Assembly (NCBI GenBank): GCA_964627525.1
Contig: CAZVIA010000002.1
Coordinates: 59,262 to 123,261 of the forward strand
Direction: 5' to 3'
DNA from: an uncultured Gammaproteobacteria bacterium
GTDB taxonomy: Bacteria; Patescibacteriota; Patescibacteriia; Magasanikbacterales; JBBTQS01
Length of the DNA stretch: 64,000 nucleotides
The translations under genes and the position numbers were made by a program. Positions 1,598 to 28,388 of the stretch are shown here, in pieces. Position 1 is the first letter of the stretch. Every line of letters begins with the position of its first letter. Below the pieces are notes generated by a model. That model did no database searches. It saw nothing but the letters and a program-made list of their open reading frames with translations, and was not told where the DNA came from.

Positions 1598-2401
1598 ATG
1601 ATCAAATTCAACTCCCAAAAACACAAAAAACTTTTAAAAGATAAACCATTTTCATTTATATCAACTTTGGTTTATTTGGATTTTTGTGCTTATATTTTGG
1701 AGAGAAATGAAGAAGATTTGATTGTGACACAAGACAAAGTAGATAAAAAAGATTTTCCGTATTTGTTTTTGCCAAAAAATAAAAAAAACTGGAAAAACAT
1801 GACAGCCTCAATGGTTTGTGCAGAGGATTTGGAAAAAATTAAAAAATCTGATGTAAAAATTATCAAAACAAACCCAACTGTAACTGAATTTTTTTATTTA
1901 ACAAAAGATTTTCTTAATCCCACAAAAAAATACAAACAAAAAATTGGGCAGTTTGAAAAAAATTATAAGTTTAAAATCCGCAAAAAATACAATAAGAAAA
2001 AGTTGCTGAAATTTTATGATTTTTGGGAAAAACAAAAATCTGGCGATAAAAATAAAGATGAAAATGTTTTTAGAAAAGAAAGTGACGAGTTTTTTAATTT
2101 TTGTTTAAAAAATCTCAAAAAATATAATATTGAACAAATTTATGTTGAGGTTGAAGGAAAATTAGTAGGATTTGTGTGGGGAGTAAAACATTCTAAAAAC
2201 AATTGGGTAAGTTTGCATATAAAATCAGATTATAAATATCGCGGGTTAAGTAGTTTTTTAAATTTTGAAATCTCCAAAAAATTTACTAATACAAAATTAG
2301 TTTCTTTGGGTACTGGTTGCCAAGATGCAGGCTTAACTCAAAACAAAAAAGAATTAGGACCAGCTGAAGAAAAAAAATATTTTTACGTTTTAACTAGATA
2401 A
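1598..2401 (+). CDS. Hypothetical lysine-rich protein (possible GNAT-fold C-terminal region)
   Basis: Long ORF with native AT-rich composition. Start assigned to the second Met (MIKFNSQ) to avoid overlap with tsaE. No recognised motif. Confidence 0.45.
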   Translation: MIKFNSQKHKKLLKDKPFSFISTLVYLDFCAYILERNEEDLIVTQDKVDKKDFPYLFLPKNKKNWKNMTASMVCAEDLEKIKKSDVKIIKTNPTVTEFFYLTKDFLNPTKKYKQKIGQFEKNYKFKIRKKYNKKKLLKFYDFWEKQKSGDKNKDENVFRKESDEFFNFCLKNLKKYNIEQIYVEVEGKLVGFVWGVKHSKNNWVSLHIKSDYKYRGLSSFLNFEISKKFTNTKLVSLGTGCQDAGLTQNKKELGPAEEKKYFYVLTR

Positions 2402-2434
2402 TCAAAAACTCCACAAGGTGTTAACCAAGTGGAG
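2401..2434 (-). terminator. Intrinsic terminator downstream of the 94-aa GC-rich ORF
   Basis: Imperfect hairpin CTCCAC...GTGGAG followed on the minus strand by TTTTTGAT. Confidence 0.5.
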
Positions 2435-2462
2435 CCTTTTAAGTGTGTCGCATGAAATTGAC

Positions 2463-2747
2463 TCACTTTGTTTTCTGTTTGGGATAATAACCCACACTAT
2501 CCATTGCAGTGATAACACTGAAGGGTACGATCTCTTTCAAGTCTTGGAAAAGCATTCCTTCTGGAGGAAACCAGCAAATCCAATCATTATCTTGACACCT
2601 AAATCCAGCAATACTCATATGTCTTATGAAATCTTCGCAAGCAGGAACATGACCGATAAAAGTACCTAATTTAACTCTGACAGTACCAATTGGGTCATCT
2701 TCTTGGAACAAGCTAGACGGAGCTTTCCCACGATTTTTGTCCGTCAT
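2463..2747 (-). CDS. Hypothetical 94-aa protein in a compositionally foreign (GC-rich) cassette; Cys/His-rich
   Basis: ATG preceded by AAGGAGGAG (5-nt spacer). Local GC is clearly higher than flanks. Own promoter upstream and terminator downstream. His/Cys cluster HVPACEDFIRH...FRCQDNDWICW. Confidence 0.55.
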   Translation of the reverse strand: MTDKNRGKAPSSLFQEDDPIGTVRVKLGTFIGHVPACEDFIRHMSIAGFRCQDNDWICWFPPEGMLFQDLKEIVPFSVITAMDSVGYYPKQKTK

Positions 2748-2783
2748 GTTCTCCTCCTTTTCTTCTCCCTAATGAGAAGATAT

Positions 2784-2818
2784 CTTTATACCAAAAACAG
2801 CACTTTGTGTCAAGTGCT
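2784..2818 (-). promoter_or_regulatory. Sigma70-like promoter (TTGACA-17-TATAAA) inside the cls terminator hairpin
   Basis: Minus strand reads CAGCACTTGACACAAAGTGCTG TTTTTGG TATAAA. An 8-bp inverted repeat (CAGCACTT/AAGTGCTG) plus T-tract terminates cls, and its loop region contains the -35 TTGACA for the downstream small ORF. Confidence 0.5.
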
Positions 2819-2836
2819 GCTTGCTTTTAAAACAAT

Positions 2837-3949
2837 TTACAAAATCGGACTCCAAATACTCCAAATTTTCTGTAAAACTTTATCTAAAAAAGAATGTCCT
2901 TTCCAAAAATCAGGTGTAAATACTGTTGATTGTTTTTTCCATTTATTTAAAATCCTACGCAAATCCCCTATCATCTCACGATTTGTAAAAACAATATTTG
3001 CTTCATGATTATAAAACAAACTTCGCGAATCCATATTACTACTTCCAACCATTCCTAATTTGTGATCAACAACCAATGCTTTTGCATGAATCATTTCTTT
3101 TAATAAATAAAACTTCACACCCAAAGCATGTAACTCTGGAAACATTGAATGCATTGCATGATTAACTGGACCATGATTTCCTTTCATTGGCACAACCACT
3201 TCAATCCTGACTCCCCTTTTAATTGCTTTTTGAAAAGCTAATTTTAATTTTTTATCTGGCAAAAAATAAGGTGTGGTAATTAAAATTGCTTTACGCGCTT
3301 TTCTCAAAGATGTAATGTATAATTTTCTAATCTTTGATCGTGTTTTAAATTTTTTATAAGGATGCGCAAAAATAAATGCAAACTGTTTGAATTTTTTCTT
3401 GAAATTTTTAATTGGGTGACGTAGGAGATTTTTTACATGACGATGATCACCACCACCCTTAACCCAACTTGTTCCAAAAGATCTTATCATTGGCGCAACC
3501 ACATCTTTGTTTTGAATTTTTAAATGCAAATCATAATAATCTCGACTTTCTTTATAAACATTTACACCACCAATAAAACCAATCTTATTATCAATAACTA
3601 AAATCTTGCGATGATTACGATGAAATAACCGACGAAAACTTTTCACAATGCGTTTTAAAGCTAAAGATTGAAAAGACAAAACTTTTGCACCTGCTTTTTT
3701 CAAACGCTTTATTGTTGAGTATGAAAACCACCAACTACCAAAACCATCAAAAATAATTTTTACATCCAAACCAGCTTGAGCTTTTTCAACTAAAATATTT
3801 ACAAACTCATGACCAGCTTCATCATCAATCAAAATATAAGACTCCAAAAAAATAGAATGCTCTGCTCTGCGCAAAGCCCTTTTCATTGACGACCACGCTT
3901 CTTCAGTTGTTTTATAAAACTCCCATTTCATAATTATTTTTTCTGACAA
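2837..3949 (-). CDS. cls: Phospholipase D-family cardiolipin synthase (two HKD motifs)
   Basis: Two HxKxxxxD motifs: HRKILVIDNKIGFIGGVN and HAKALVVDHKLGMVGSSNMD. Confidence 0.75.
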   Translation of the reverse strand: MSEKIIMKWEFYKTTEEAWSSMKRALRRAEHSIFLESYILIDDEAGHEFVNILVEKAQAGLDVKIIFDGFGSWWFSYSTIKRLKKAGAKVLSFQSLALKRIVKSFRRLFHRNHRKILVIDNKIGFIGGVNVYKESRDYYDLHLKIQNKDVVAPMIRSFGTSWVKGGGDHRHVKNLLRHPIKNFKKKFKQFAFIFAHPYKKFKTRSKIRKLYITSLRKARKAILITTPYFLPDKKLKLAFQKAIKRGVRIEVVVPMKGNHGPVNHAMHSMFPELHALGVKFYLLKEMIHAKALVVDHKLGMVGSSNMDSRSLFYNHEANIVFTNREMIGDLRRILNKWKKQSTVFTPDFWKGHSFLDKVLQKIWSIWSPIL

Positions 3950-3965
3950 ATTTATTTTAGAAAAA

Positions 3966-4781
3966 CTATTTTACAAAAACTTGCTTAAGTTTTGCTGTGC
4001 CAAATAAAACCCCAAACAAAACCGCTCCAACCAATACAATAACAGCTCCTGAAGGTAAATCAAGATAATATGAAACTACTAATCCACCTAACACAATTAA
4101 CTCAGCATAAATTACACTTTGAACTAACATGCTTTTAAGTGAAGTTGCCAGCTGACGACCTGCTGCTACTGGAACAATTAGCAACGCACTTATTAAAACA
4201 ATTCCCAAAAGTTTTACTCCAATGACAACTGTGATTGCAAGAAAAACATATAACAACAATTCTGCAGCTAAAACTGGAATTCCAGAAAGCCACGCCATCT
4301 CCCTATTGATCACTAACAACAAAATACTTCTGTACAAAAGCAAAAGCAAAATTGTTGTGATTACTGAAAATGGAATTATCAACCACAAGTCTGCATAACT
4401 TATTGTTAAAATATTTCCAAACAAATAACTCATTAAGTCTGGCTGATATCCTTTGCTAAATGTTAATAAAATTACACCAATCGCCATTCCAACTGTAAAC
4501 ATAAATCCTAAAATTGTGTCGCTGCGAAGTTTTGTGTATTTATCAAACAAAGCCATTCCAATTGCAAAAATTACTGCAACTAACATTGCACCCCACAAAG
4601 GATTTATTCCTACAAGCAAACCAATTGCAATTCCAGCCAAAGAAGCATGTGCAACTCCATCACCAAAAAATGCCATTCCTTTTGCGTTCACAAAAATTCC
4701 CAACAAAGCCAAAGGTAAAGCTGTTGCTGCTCCAGCCAACAAAGCTCTTTGCATAAATTCTAATGTAATAAACTCTGGCAT
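3966..4781 (-). CDS. znuB: Metal (Zn/Mn) ABC transporter permease
   Basis: Polytopic membrane protein of the ZnuB/MntB family, immediately downstream of the cognate ATPase. Confidence 0.7.
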   Translation of the reverse strand: MPEFITLEFMQRALLAGAATALPLALLGIFVNAKGMAFFGDGVAHASLAGIAIGLLVGINPLWGAMLVAVIFAIGMALFDKYTKLRSDTILGFMFTVGMAIGVILLTFSKGYQPDLMSYLFGNILTISYADLWLIIPFSVITTILLLLLYRSILLLVINREMAWLSGIPVLAAELLLYVFLAITVVIGVKLLGIVLISALLIVPVAAGRQLATSLKSMLVQSVIYAELIVLGGLVVSYYLDLPSGAVIVLVGAVLFGVLFGTAKLKQVFVK

Positions 4782-6551: not shown

Positions 6552-6623
6552 TACCGCCAAGGGGAATCGAACCCCTGTTCCCAGGATGAGAACCTGATGT
6601 CCTAACCACTAGACGATGGCGGC
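6552..6623 (-). tRNA. tRNA-Glu (anticodon CUC)
   Basis: Manual cloverleaf: acceptor GCCGCCA/UGGCGGU with G1-U72, D arm GUCU/GGAC, anticodon stem UCAGG/CCUGG with loop UUCUCAU, T arm AGGGG-UUCGAUU-CCCCU, discriminator A. CCA is not encoded. Confidence 0.7.
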
Positions 6624-6738: not shown

Positions 6739-7284
6739 ATGATTATCTTACAAACTATTATTTTATTTTTGCCAGCTGGATTTGCAAACATGACTCCCCC
6801 TTTGTTGAAAAAAATTAATTTTTTGGCTGAGCCTATTGATTTTGGGAAAAAATTTCGTGGAAAAAGAATTTTTGGTGACCACAAAACTTGGCGCGGTTTA
6901 ATTTTTGGAATTATAGTTGCGATTGCAATTTGTTGGGCACAAAGATTATTGTATCCACATTTTGCTGAATATTCTTTGTTAGATTATCAAAATATAAATG
7001 TTAATGTACTTGGTTTTGTGTTGGGATTTGGTGCTTTAGGTGGAGATATTGTGAAAAGTTTTTTTAAAAGACAAATTGGAGTTGCTCCTGGGAAAACTTG
7101 GATAATTTTTGATCAAATTGATTGGATTGTTGGTGCAAGTTTTTTAATGTGGGTGTTTTTTGAATTTTCTCCAGATATATTTTCTGGATGGGTGTATGTT
7201 GTTGCTATTATTTTATTTGGATTGTTGCATCCTATTTTTAATTTAATTAGTTGGGTTTTAGGAATTCAGAAAAATAAATTCTAA
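6739..7284 (+). CDS. CarS/DUF46-family membrane cytidylyltransferase (CDP-archaeol synthase-like)
   Basis: MIILQTIILFLPAGFANMTPPLL...GDHKTWRGLIFGIIVAIAICW resembles the CarS/CTP-transferase-like family. ATG at 6739; the track start at 6703 is a TTG inside the palindrome. Confidence 0.55.
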   Translation: MIILQTIILFLPAGFANMTPPLLKKINFLAEPIDFGKKFRGKRIFGDHKTWRGLIFGIIVAIAICWAQRLLYPHFAEYSLLDYQNINVNVLGFVLGFGALGGDIVKSFFKRQIGVAPGKTWIIFDQIDWIVGASFLMWVFFEFSPDIFSGWVYVVAIILFGLLHPIFNLISWVLGIQKNKF

Positions 7285-7289
7285 AAAAA

Positions 7290-7526
7290 ATTTAGGGCCT
7301 GCGCGTTAGCTAACAGGCCCAAGGTTACTTTCTGACAAAATGAACGTTAGGTAAGATTCGACGTTGGTGCCGTTATTGTCTAGCTGACCCTTGTTCAGGC
7401 CATCAGCCCTTGTTGGACAAACCAAGCTAACCATACTTGGTTTTTCCCGAACACCACATGTACTACCTACCGTATGCACGAGGCCTACTTCTATGAGCGG
7501 TTTCCTCTTGTTGTGCAATCCAGATT
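7290..7526 (-). ncRNA. Unclassified GC-rich structured RNA (~235 nt) with its own promoter and terminator
   Basis: GC roughly 50% against a ~33% background. No SD-led ORF (the 70-aa track ORF uses TTG and has no RBS). Upstream minus-strand promoter TTGACA-17-TAGTAT. 3' hairpin GGGCCUG...CAGGCCC followed by U8. No conserved tmRNA, RNase P, SRP or 6S motif could be matched by eye. Confidence 0.5.
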
Positions 7527-7532
7527 GTTCGT

Positions 7533-7570
7533 ATACTACAAAACCCTGACTTTTTTGTCAAGTCAGGGTT
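7533..7570 (-). promoter_or_regulatory. Bidirectional terminator hairpin that embeds the -35/-10 of the ncRNA promoter
   Basis: CCCTGACTT...AAGTCAGGG hairpin flanked by A/T tracts terminates the DUF5684 operon. On the minus strand TTGACA (7561-7556) - 17 nt - TAGTAT (7538-7533) forms a near-consensus sigma70 promoter. Confidence 0.5.
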
Positions 7571-7597
7571 TTTGATTGATTTTGAAACTGAAAATTC

Positions 7598-7990
7598 TTA
7601 GACTACTGGCTGTTGTGGAGTTGTAGGTGCTGGAGGAGTTGCTGAAGCTGAACCACTTTTTGCAAAAGCAATATAACCCATACTAATAAAGTTTACACCT
7701 GGAATAAGTGAAAATAATCCATGCCACCACCTGTTCATTCCTCTGTTGTGTGCCATATTAGACCACAACCTCACATAGATCACAAGATTAACTAACGGTA
7801 TAAAGGTTAATAAAAACCACCAAATAGATTTTTTTGCAGCCTGTATCATTATTATAACTTGAGCTACTGGAACCCAAGCTAACCACGAATTACTAACTCC
7901 TGATTTTTTGCCTATTATTTGAATACAGTAGGCCATATAGGCATACATTATCAAAAAGACAATTAACATCATTGGCGACGTTTCTTCCAT
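7598..7990 (-). CDS. DUF5684-family small membrane protein
   Basis: Pattern W..VP....I....KKSIWWFLLTFIPLVNLVIY...FAKSG matches the DUF5684 signature (IP..N...WW.LL.FIPLVN...FGK). Confidence 0.55.
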   Translation of the reverse strand: MEETSPMMLIVFLIMYAYMAYCIQIIGKKSGVSNSWLAWVPVAQVIIMIQAAKKSIWWFLLTFIPLVNLVIYVRLWSNMAHNRGMNRWWHGLFSLIPGVNFISMGYIAFAKSGSASATPPAPTTPQQPVV

Positions 7991-8323: not shown

Positions 8324-8935
8324 TTATTTTTTTAATCTCCTAACCCTAACAAAAAACACTGCACTCATCACCGCAAAAACCAAAGCAACAAAACTAACAA
8401 CTACTTCAACATAATTTATACCACTAAATGCATATAAAACAAAGAACAGGTGTGGAAGATAAGCAAATGCATTATACCAAAAACCTGCAATTGGTTTGAT
8501 AAGCCAATTTGTTTTTTTGCCATAACTTCTGTGCAAAGTTATAAACAAACGCGCACTTACTAAAACAAAACCATAAATCACACCGACTCCTGCGCTCACA
8601 AAACCTGCCATTGCCAAACCAGCCACAAAAATCATGTAACTTGTGGTATCCACCACAACATCTGTAAATTTTCCGCGATCAGAACTTTTTTTCAAATAAC
8701 GCGCCAAACTTCCGTCCAACCAATCCATCATCAAGCTCAACACCATAAACAAAACAGCTAACTTAGAATTTATCTCAATATATAAAATCGCAATAACAAT
8801 AAAAACTAAAACAAGATAACTTACCATGTTTGGTGTTATGTGTAGTTTAGCTAACAACCAACAAACTGGCCGAAAAATTTTAGTTCTCAGGTCCTGTAAA
8901 AAATAATAAATTTTGTCCACTGCCTCCTTATTCAT
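8324..8935 (-). CDS. CDP-alcohol phosphatidyltransferase family protein
   Basis: D-G-x2-A-R-x8-G-x3-D-x3-D motif: DWLDGSLARYLKKSSDRGKFTDVVVDTT; multi-TM. Confidence 0.7.
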   Translation of the reverse strand: MNKEAVDKIYYFLQDLRTKIFRPVCWLLAKLHITPNMVSYLVLVFIVIAILYIEINSKLAVLFMVLSLMMDWLDGSLARYLKKSSDRGKFTDVVVDTTSYMIFVAGLAMAGFVSAGVGVIYGFVLVSARLFITLHRSYGKKTNWLIKPIAGFWYNAFAYLPHLFFVLYAFSGINYVEVVVSFVALVFAVMSAVFFVRVRRLKK

Positions 8936-12160: not shown

Positions 12161-12454
12161 ATGGCTGGTGAAAGTAAACAGGATTGTCCTACTGTTGCGG
12201 AGTTTCTGCTACAAGAGGGGTATACAAATGCTGGAGGTCTACTTGGGCACATTGAACAAGGTGGACCAGTCAAACTTGAGACAATGCTGAACCGAGCGAT
12301 TCAGTATGGTTGGCGAGCTGGTGCAGTTGCAACAGATCAGCGAGCTGTAAAAGCCTTGCGATTGTTGGAAGATGCACAGAAAGAGCGAGGTGCTTCGTTC
12401 AGTCCGAAAGAAAAGTTCAACCCATTCTGGAGTTCTGGTGACCATGGTTCCTAG
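12161..12454 (+). CDS. Hypothetical 97-aa protein in a GC-rich self-contained cassette
   Basis: GGGAGGGGG SD, ATG at 12161, GC-rich codons, terminator directly downstream. No recognised domain (MAGESKQDCPTVAEFLLQEGYTNAGG...). Confidence 0.55.
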   Translation: MAGESKQDCPTVAEFLLQEGYTNAGGLLGHIEQGGPVKLETMLNRAIQYGWRAGAVATDQRAVKALRLLEDAQKERGASFSPKEKFNPFWSSGDHGS

Positions 12455-28168: not shown

Positions 28169-28288
28169 ATGTGCACCGCGTTCTGGCTTTGTGCGGGATA
28201 CCTGATGTTCTTCGATGAGAAGCCTCCCAAGGTGGAGGGAGAGCTTCCAATCGACGGGCAGAAGAACATCCCTGATGATGATCAGTGA
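28169..28288 (+). CDS. Putative 39-aa microprotein (hydrophobic N-terminus, acidic tail) in a GC-rich cassette
   Basis: AAGGAGG, 6-nt spacer, ATG; MCTAFWLCAGYLMFFDEKPPKVEGELPIDGQKNIPDDDQ; strong terminator 30 nt downstream. Not in the six-frame track because it is under 60 aa. Could alternatively be a non-coding RNA. Confidence 0.35.
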   Translation: MCTAFWLCAGYLMFFDEKPPKVEGELPIDGQKNIPDDDQ

Positions 28289-28317
28289 TTGCCTGACTAG
28301 GCAAGCTCTGACCCTCG

Positions 28318-28359: not shown

Positions 28360-28388
28360 AGGCAAAATTTGCAAAGCAAATTTTGCCT
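28360..28388. repeat. Palindromic element copy 3 (AGGCAAAATTTGC-aaa-GCAAATTTTGCCT)
   Basis: Perfect 13-bp arms, immediately adjacent to a canonical terminator. Confidence 0.6.

Follow-up and report, generated by a model that had tools for sequence, protein, structure and literature searches.

GC-rich intergenic regions of AT-rich genomes can be screened for small RNA (sRNA) genes, and such screens are said to accept candidates only when they come with multiple homologs and covariation. Among the RNAs described so far, 6S RNA folds into a rod, in which long irregular helices flank a large central bubble, and is conserved across related genomes, and an sRNA that is complementary to the 3' untranslated region (3' UTR) of a neighbor can control the processing or stability of its mRNA, as GadY does for gadX. 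To our knowledge, almost nothing is known about RNA-based regulation in Patescibacteria, or Candidate Phyla Radiation (CPR), whose genomes are reduced and have few recognizable regulators. Here, we analyzed an element at positions 7283 to 7561, on the minus strand of a 64,000-nucleotide stretch of contig CAZVIA010000002.1 (hereafter the window). The MurF and CarS homologs of this stretch, together with their neighbors, place the organism in the Patescibacteria/CPR, the nearest named relatives being Magasanikbacteria, Falkowbacteria, and Parcubacteria at about 50% identity. The element consists of a GC-rich block, a promoter, and a hairpin followed by eight uridines (U8). We propose, with a probability of roughly 45%, that it encodes an expressed non-coding sRNA of about 240 nucleotides (nt), independently transcribed and restricted to one Patescibacteria species. 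This is the best available reading of the sequence signals, of the thermodynamics of the predicted fold, and of four substitutions in one species.

The composition of the block is unusual for this genome. In a scan with 150-nt windows, positions 7287 to 7548 are above 0.46 GC, with a maximum of 0.50, and form one of seven such stretches in the window, whose mean is 0.330. With 200-nt windows, the GC content is 0.48 at 7300-7499 and 0.25 to 0.35 in the flanks. The first-pass annotation had described a block of about 50% GC in a genome of about 33% GC, which agrees with our values of 46-50% and 33.0%, and its coordinates and sequence motifs were found to be correct on re-inspection. Locally raised GC in a strongly AT-biased genome is the pattern expected of a structure-constrained RNA, and the excess fits such an RNA because the flanking native genes have a GC content at third codon positions (GC3) of 0.19-0.21 and the nearby tRNA has a GC content of 0.57. 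Neither internal repeats nor CRISPR-like or TIGR-like arrays were found within the block. The parts of the predicted gene, including the hairpin that it shares with the upstream operon, are as follows:

7283-7526, minus strand: predicted primary transcript, about 237-244 nt long, 46-48% GC
7533-7561, minus strand: sigma-70-type promoter, with the -35 hexamer TTGACA at 7561-7556, a 17-nt spacer, and the -10 hexamer TAGTAT at 7538-7533
7540-7572, both strands: bidirectional terminator-like hairpin (AAAACCCUGAC...GUCAGGGUUUU), which closes the DUF5684 operon on the minus strand
7475-7517, minus strand: predicted 5' hairpin, with the helices UGCAC/GUGCA and GAGG/CCUC, inner CC/GG and GCU/AGU pairs, and an AAA internal loop
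7344-7473, minus strand: predicted core three-way-junction domain, whose minimum free energy (MFE) helices are also in the centroid structure
7447-7415, minus strand: predicted hairpin A of the core, with a 9-bp stem (AAACCAAGU/GCUUGGUUU)
7408-7382, minus strand: predicted hairpin B of the core, GGCUGAU/GUCAGCU with a GG bulge and a GAACA loop
7283-7320, minus strand: intrinsic-terminator-like element, with the stem GGGCCUGU/GCAGGCCC at 7320-7313 and 7302-7295 (-17.1 kcal/mol)

The promoter, which was already recognized in the first-pass annotation, matches the consensus at 10 of 12 positions, has a perfect -35 hexamer, and is the best match in the 3-kb region that was scanned. It places the predicted start of transcription at about A7526/A7525. 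As a class, promoter-like matches in the 3-kb scan occur at chance level (12 observed versus 12.1 expected). A scan of the whole window gave 33 matches of at least 10/12, including 8 that are intergenic, and all seven intergenic matches other than the one described here precede a gene on the same strand, or tRNA-Glu, by 8 to 63 nt. Hence, an intergenic match of at least 10/12 is a good predictor of a real promoter in this genome. At the other end of the predicted transcript, the terminator has a 12-nt loop with two inner G-C pairs and a UAAA spacer, and its U8 (7290-7283) overlaps the stop codon of carS on the opposite strand. It had been called a textbook terminator: its coordinates, stable stem, and U8 stand, and the adjective is slightly generous for a hairpin with such a loop and a gap of 4 nt before the U8. 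These two features also account for its absence from the list of the terminator scanner. Downstream of the minus-strand DUF5684 gene, whose end is at 7598, comes the hairpin at 7572-7540, which looks like a terminator in a scan of both strands (minus-strand dG of -19.4, plus-strand dG of -17.5) and whose loop contains the -35 hexamer of the RNA promoter.

The predicted fold of the minus strand is more stable than that of shuffled controls. For the full RNA, the z-scores are -2.08 (minus strand) and -1.14 (plus strand), and without the terminator they are -1.87 and -0.42. The difference is larger for the 130-nt core (7473-7344), with z-scores of -3.50 and -1.63, respectively. In the same analysis, the neighboring tRNA scored -2.49 and three other GC-rich stretches scored from +1.35 to -0.45. 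Since the excess is strand-specific, composition alone does not explain it. The core would be closed by a long, interrupted helix (ACG/CGU, UAGGUAG/UUACCUA, AUGU/ACGU, and GGUGU/GCACC), and the 5' hairpin is present in both the MFE and the centroid structure (z = -1.9). The prediction is thus consistent with the structured minus-strand RNA that had been proposed by eye. As used here, "structured RNA" describes a predicted structure, for which the evidence consists of thermodynamics (core z = -3.5) and four strain-level substitutions.

Within the species, eight contigs drawn from several samples carry the RNA in identical or nearly identical form. For example, it is 100% identical to the window at positions 2047-2360 of a JGI contig (sample 3300009375, Ga0118721_1035209). 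The four substitutions in the RNA come from a strain variant present in two samples. Two of them, C7515U in the 5' hairpin and C7317U in the terminator stem, affect positions with predicted pair probabilities of 0.99-1.0 and change a C-G pair into a U-G pair; the pair is kept on the minus strand and would become an A-C mismatch on the plus strand. The other two, A7501C and U7343C, fall at positions predicted to be at least 95% unpaired. This pattern fits a structured RNA on the minus strand, for which it is very weak evidence. The two contigs of the variant (positions 820-1231, corresponding to the window from about 7234 on) also carry a rearrangement scar: 55 nt past the terminator, the final 17 codons of carS give way to the middle of a deoxyhypusine-synthase-like open reading frame (ORF; TTVGGIEEDIMK...) that is not in the window.

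Beyond this species, the RNA was not recovered. No homolog was found at 80 GTDB loci anchored on carS, where synteny was searched with nhmmer, a screen for GC-rich islands and ORFs, Rfam, and a covariance model. Across 0.91 Mb of CarS- or MurF-anchored loci of CPR and DPANN genomes, nhmmer and the covariance model of the core returned only the window itself. The RNA was not matched by blastn in the phage and plasmid collections, and two DNA pattern scans of viral contigs gave zero matches. Two structure-guided pattern scans of metagenome contigs also gave zero, which is a weak negative, since the collection missed the identical JGI contig. The collection or its index appears to be incomplete for the JGI sample 3300009375. 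In the literature, we found no paper describing a matching CPR RNA. These results agree with the earlier suggestion of a lineage-specific RNA, which we found in one species only and inside a species-specific insertion.

Several observations weigh against an sRNA gene. In a conserved class of structured RNA, homologs from several lineages show compensatory base changes; here, with no homolog found outside the species, there is no covariation and no sign of long-term purifying selection. The z-score of the whole transcript is only about -2, and the U-tract stands 4 nt off the terminator stem. The variant differs at 4 of 876 aligned bases, all of them within the RNA, which suggests that constraint is relaxed or that a recombination tract has its end in the RNA. 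The same variant keeps the RNA though its carS is truncated, so carS cannot be the sole reason for the RNA to exist. Finally, the RNA lies in a 2.26-kb insertion, and elsewhere in the window GC-rich islands turned out to be small protein genes of foreign appearance, so the high GC of the block may reflect recent acquisition. Together with the genes described above, the insertion is defined by the following features:

6739-7284, plus strand: carS-like gene of the CDP-archaeol synthase family (PF01864, 5.6e-27), convergent with the RNA
8324-8935: CDP-alcohol phosphatidyltransferase gene, within the 2.26-kb segment
6695-6729: left direct repeat, 35 nt, which contains a palindrome (GGCAAAATTTGC-N-GCAAATTTTGCC) and borders the 2.26-kb segment
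8956-8990: right direct repeat, 35 nt, between the murF stop codon and the CDP-alcohol phosphatidyltransferase gene

The segment lies between MurF and tRNA-Glu and contains the CDP-alcohol phosphatidyltransferase gene, a gene for a hypothetical protein of 107 amino acids (hyp107), DUF5684, the RNA, and carS. The direct repeats (family D2) are 83% identical and have a spacing of 2261. Relatives with 57-65% identity in MurF have the order PBP2-MurF-tRNA-Glu(CTC)-ZnuABC-PLD, in which the tRNA promoter comes immediately downstream of murF. The whole insertion is absent from the nearest relatives by MurF (68, 65, 59, and 57% identity), and nhmmer and the covariance model found no RNA in them. This absence argues strongly against an essential housekeeping RNA. 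The closest of these relatives (L089, MurF 68% identical, found in the same samples) likewise has a variable interval between MurF and ZnuA: positions 2061-4520 hold an 83-amino-acid gene, a ParE-like toxin, tRNA-Glu, a 203-amino-acid repeat protein, two small reverse-strand genes, and an S41 peptidase. Hence, the neighborhood of tRNA-Glu seems to be an insertion hot spot in the clade. The palindromic element (GGCRAAATTTGC-N3-GCAAATTTYGCC) has three copies in the window, with zero expected. The third copy, at 28361-28387, adjoins another GC-rich small-gene island, and the copies differ by a compensatory change between G-C and A-T that keeps the hairpin. The element could be similar to repetitive extragenic palindromic elements or be a recombination site for small cassettes. 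The DUF5684 protein had no relative but itself among 5.8 billion proteins, and we found no paper on DUF5684 in the literature. Searches of the neighbors with PHROG and PADLOC gave nothing significant that would indicate a phage or defense context.

The alternative that best survives these data is that the block is a relic of horizontally acquired DNA, e.g., a decayed small gene or a fragment of a cassette, in which the promoter- and terminator-like elements were retained or arose by chance and which has no function of its own. It would account for the species-specific 2.26-kb insertion between palindromic direct repeats, at a site where relatives have MurF, tRNA-Glu, and ZnuA directly adjacent, for the confinement of the four strain differences in 876 nt to the block, and for the lack of homologs in any collection searched. 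It is also in line with the other GC-rich islands in the window, which are small, foreign-looking genes led by a Shine-Dalgarno (SD) motif. Yet, the GC excess is local to the RNA, as the remainder of the insertion lacks it (GC3 of 0.19 in carS, GC of 0.28 in hyp107). The fold excess is strand-specific, both stem substitutions keep pairing, the promoter equals those of real genes in this genome, and the searches revealed no protein similarity for any ORF. We therefore consider this alternative unlikely, and the sRNA gene preferable to it. Two of the GC-rich islands deserve mention in their own right: 12161-12454 and 28169-28291, both on the plus strand, are genes of 97 and 40 amino acids, with a strong SD motif (GGAGGGGG and GGAGGTG), their own TTGAC-type promoter, and a terminator. 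Hence, GC-rich islands in this genome are not always RNAs.

A second alternative is that the block is a long structured 3' UTR and not a separate gene. It could belong to the hyp107-DUF5684 operon, by read-through of its weak first terminator up to the second, stronger hairpin, or to carS. Read-through is plausible, because on the minus strand the tail after the first hairpin (7572-7540) is only UUUUGUAGUAU. On the carS side, the gene has no U-tailed terminator on the plus strand before 7572: the hairpin that follows carS is succeeded by AAGGUUAC and not by a U-tract, and no U-tailed hairpin was found on this strand from the stop codon (7284) to 7540-7572. The hairpin at 7540-7572, with the plus-strand tail UUUUUGAUUGAUUUU, is the first one of this type downstream of carS. 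However, the two hairpins have precisely between them a 10/12 promoter with a perfect -35 hexamer, the fold signal belongs to the minus strand and not to that of carS, and the RNA is kept in the strain where carS is truncated. Read-through could also coexist with an internal promoter. We regard a 3' UTR as quite unlikely.

The block could also be a small foreign protein gene. An open frame covers most of it: a 70-amino-acid ORF with a TTG start (7518-7306, minus strand), within which there is also an ATG-initiated ORF of 42 amino acids. The first-pass annotation had argued that no ORF is led by an SD motif. This is true, the sequence upstream of the TTG being acgaacaatctgga, but it is uninformative: over all gene starts of the window (e.g., 12080 and 22479), an SD-like motif precedes only 6 of 57 genes, so its absence carries no weight and does not count against a protein gene. 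Most genes start with ATG in an AT-rich context, and several have a -10-like hexamer 5 to 7 nt upstream of the ATG, e.g., gcTATAATatactcATG before the PBP2 gene. This suggests, from sequence context, that leaderless or SD-independent initiation is widespread in this genome. The genes with strong SD motifs are GC-rich and foreign-looking (29904, 31126, and the two island genes at 12161-12454 and 28169-28291). The composition of the 70-amino-acid ORF is mildly coding-like at the first two codon positions (GC1 of 0.51 and GC2 of 0.41); its GC3 is 0.48, compared with 0.19-0.21 in the native MurF, PBP2, ZnuA, and CarS genes. The TTG is 8-9 nt from the predicted transcript start, which is neither leaderless nor the native AT-rich context. 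By our own estimate, an open frame of 70 codons is expected by chance in about one of six 240-nt sequences of about 48% GC. The ORF has no match in Pfam, PHROG, or PADLOC, gene callers called no ORF in the block at any of the 12 contig places returned, and all four strain substitutions are non-synonymous in its frame. A single match was found among 1.84 billion representative proteins, with E = 2.4e-25 (P0242, L096 3001-6030). It is an artefact of 18 tandem units of 55 amino acids (a 165-nt repeat) on a contig of 115 Mb, presumably a eukaryotic chromosome, the repeat then being satellite DNA. One unit scores only 26.6 bits, and the summed scores of repeats can inflate significance, as in this match. 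Coding thus appears unlikely from the sequence, and we consider a small foreign protein gene highly improbable as an account of the block.

Known RNA families were searched for across the window and in the block. At gathering thresholds, the only match of Rfam 15 in the whole window is tRNA-Glu (6552-6623). At E <= 10, searches of 7200-7650 and 7325-7530 gave chance-level matches only, none of them to transfer-messenger RNA (tmRNA), RNase P RNA, signal recognition particle (SRP) RNA, or 6S RNA, and ARAGORN found no tmRNA in the window. The best sub-threshold matches are Yfr19 (26 bits against a gathering threshold of 70), which is essentially the terminator, and algC (14.7 against 33.8). The first-pass annotation had not matched the same four RNAs by eye, and the Rfam search it proposed assigned the block to no known family. 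The hallmarks of these RNAs lead to the same conclusion. A tmRNA has a tRNA-like domain, with an acceptor stem, a T-arm, and a 3' CCA end, and a reading frame for the tag peptide; the sequence of the block has no T-arm or acceptor. Bacterial RNase P RNA of types A and B usually exceeds 270 nt and forms its P4 helix from conserved regions CR-I (GAGGAAAGUCCGG) and CR-V (ACAGAAnCCGGCUUA); the candidate is about 240 nt long and has no CR-V partner, and its partial look-alike of CR-I (GAGGAAACCGCUCAUAG) pairs locally in the MFE structure (GAGG/CCUC). In SRP RNA, Ffh binds to conserved symmetric and asymmetric loops of helix 8, which is capped by a GNRA tetraloop; the SRP clan was unmatched, and hairpin B ends in a GAACA pentaloop and carries a GG bulge. 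For 6S RNA, there is no match to RF00013, the predicted fold is branched, and relatives lack the RNA at the syntenic site. We also rejected a cis-regulatory leader. Such leaders lie upstream of the gene that they control, on the same strand, and their terminator competes with an antiterminator. Here, there is no match to a riboswitch or T-box, and the nearest same-strand gene past the RNA is tRNA-Glu, 910 nt away and beyond the convergent carS. Likenesses noted by eye to RNase P CR-I, the 5' end of tmRNA, a sarcin-ricin motif, a K-turn, 5S rRNA, and the SRP S-domain were dropped since the partner elements are missing; among them are GAGGAAACCGCUCAUAG, which by eye resembles the CR-I region, and UCUGGAUUGCAC, which by eye resembles the 5' region of tmRNA, both in comparison with Escherichia coli. 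It is hardly credible that the block is a highly divergent 6S, SRP, RNase P, or transfer-messenger RNA missed by the Rfam models, since its size, GC content, and strong promoter and terminator resemble those of such genes but inputs of 206 to 451 nt gave no match to any of these families at E <= 10, ARAGORN was negative, the sequence has no P4 partner strand, tRNA-like domain, or GNRA-capped helix 8, the predicted fold is branched and not a rod with a central bubble, and an insertion absent at 57-65% MurF identity is an unlikely home for an essential RNA.

If the element is an sRNA gene, its expression could proceed as follows. The sigma-70-type promoter, with its -35 hexamer in the terminator loop of the upstream operon, would fire into the GC-rich stretch and produce a discrete transcript, with the 5' hairpin and the three-way-junction core, ending at the hairpin with U8. 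This transcript may act as a regulatory or protein-binding RNA. One potential partner is carS. Since the first U-tailed hairpin on the plus strand is the one at 7540-7572, carS transcripts probably run antisense through the RNA, and the 3' UTR of carS would then be antisense, and perfectly complementary, to the whole RNA gene. Pairing between the RNA and the carS mRNA could set the stability or the level of the latter, and so could polymerase collision, as converging polymerases can interfere with each other. This would tie the RNA to a lipid-synthesis cassette formed by carS and the CDP-alcohol phosphatidyltransferase. As read from the layout of the locus, we find the antisense mechanism rather doubtful. 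Complementarity to other parts of the window, which could have revealed targets in trans, is limited to chance matches of 10 to 12 nt.

The carS gene and the transferase gene are adjacent in 26 of the 80 CPR and DPANN loci (L008-L087), often convergently; in these other genomes, they are often directly convergent with nothing between them. The relatives of CarS at about 50% identity are labeled both Patescibacteria and Woesearchaeota/Nanoarchaeota. The pair of lipid genes seems to be common to CPR and DPANN. In one of these loci, from a Paceibacterota metagenome-assembled genome (L042, positions 1840-2270), a tRNA-Glu downstream of carS is flanked by tRNA-Glu-like fragments with GC-rich inserts. 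These could be duplicated or intron-like pieces of the tRNA.

The candidate is a new, unclassified, stand-alone sRNA gene of an ordinary kind, with no demonstrated new RNA class. A bolder reading, which we deem improbable, is that it would be the first member of a new class of structured RNA, defined by the 5' hairpin and the 130-nt three-way-junction core and carried in CPR bacteria by a small palindrome-bounded cassette, along with small membrane proteins (hyp107 and DUF5684) and archaeal-type lipid genes. Were this so, the RNA could be, for example, part of a membrane-associated ribonucleoprotein or a regulator of the lipid pathway of carS and the CDP-alcohol transferase, and its homologs would be too diverged or too poorly sampled for the searches made here. 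For the present, the value of this single-species candidate lies mainly in being a well-delimited target for checks in metatranscriptomes. If verified, such a gene, with its clean promoter and terminator, would offer useful access to RNA regulation in CPR, and its placement beside archaeal-type lipid genes common to CPR and DPANN archaea would add to its value. The locus also holds two cautions for such genomes: the absence of an SD motif is meaningless where these motifs are rare, and GC-rich islands can be small foreign genes.

How does the candidate compare with known systems? It resembles 6S RNA (RF00013) in its size class, strong promoter, and non-coding nature, but differs from it in having a 5' hairpin and a three-way junction, in lacking a match to the covariance model, and in not being conserved in relatives. 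The algC RNA motif (RF02929) has a weak local likeness to hairpin B and its flank (AGGGC...GCCUGAAnAAGGGU, 7385-7441, minus strand), which is probably due to chance, at 14.7 bits, E = 2.1, and a length of only about 50 nt, against a gathering threshold of 33.8 bits. Like GadY of E. coli, which lies opposite the 3' UTR of gadX, the candidate is convergent with its neighbor and fully complementary to the neighbor's probable 3' UTR, a geometry that would permit processing or stabilization through a duplex. In cis-antisense sRNAs of this type, the transcripts of the two strands overlap and their duplex acts on the partner mRNA. Compared with GadY, the candidate is longer and far more structured by prediction; it persists where carS is truncated, and its putative overlap is deduced from a missing plus-strand terminator. 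Finally, the sRNA genes accepted in screens of GC-rich intergenic regions are said to have several homologs and covariation, whereas the RNA described here is a singleton in one species. Yet, it shares with them a long, GC-rich, and ORF-poor region in a low-GC genome, its own putative promoter and terminator, and a predicted fold that is better than that of shuffled sequences.

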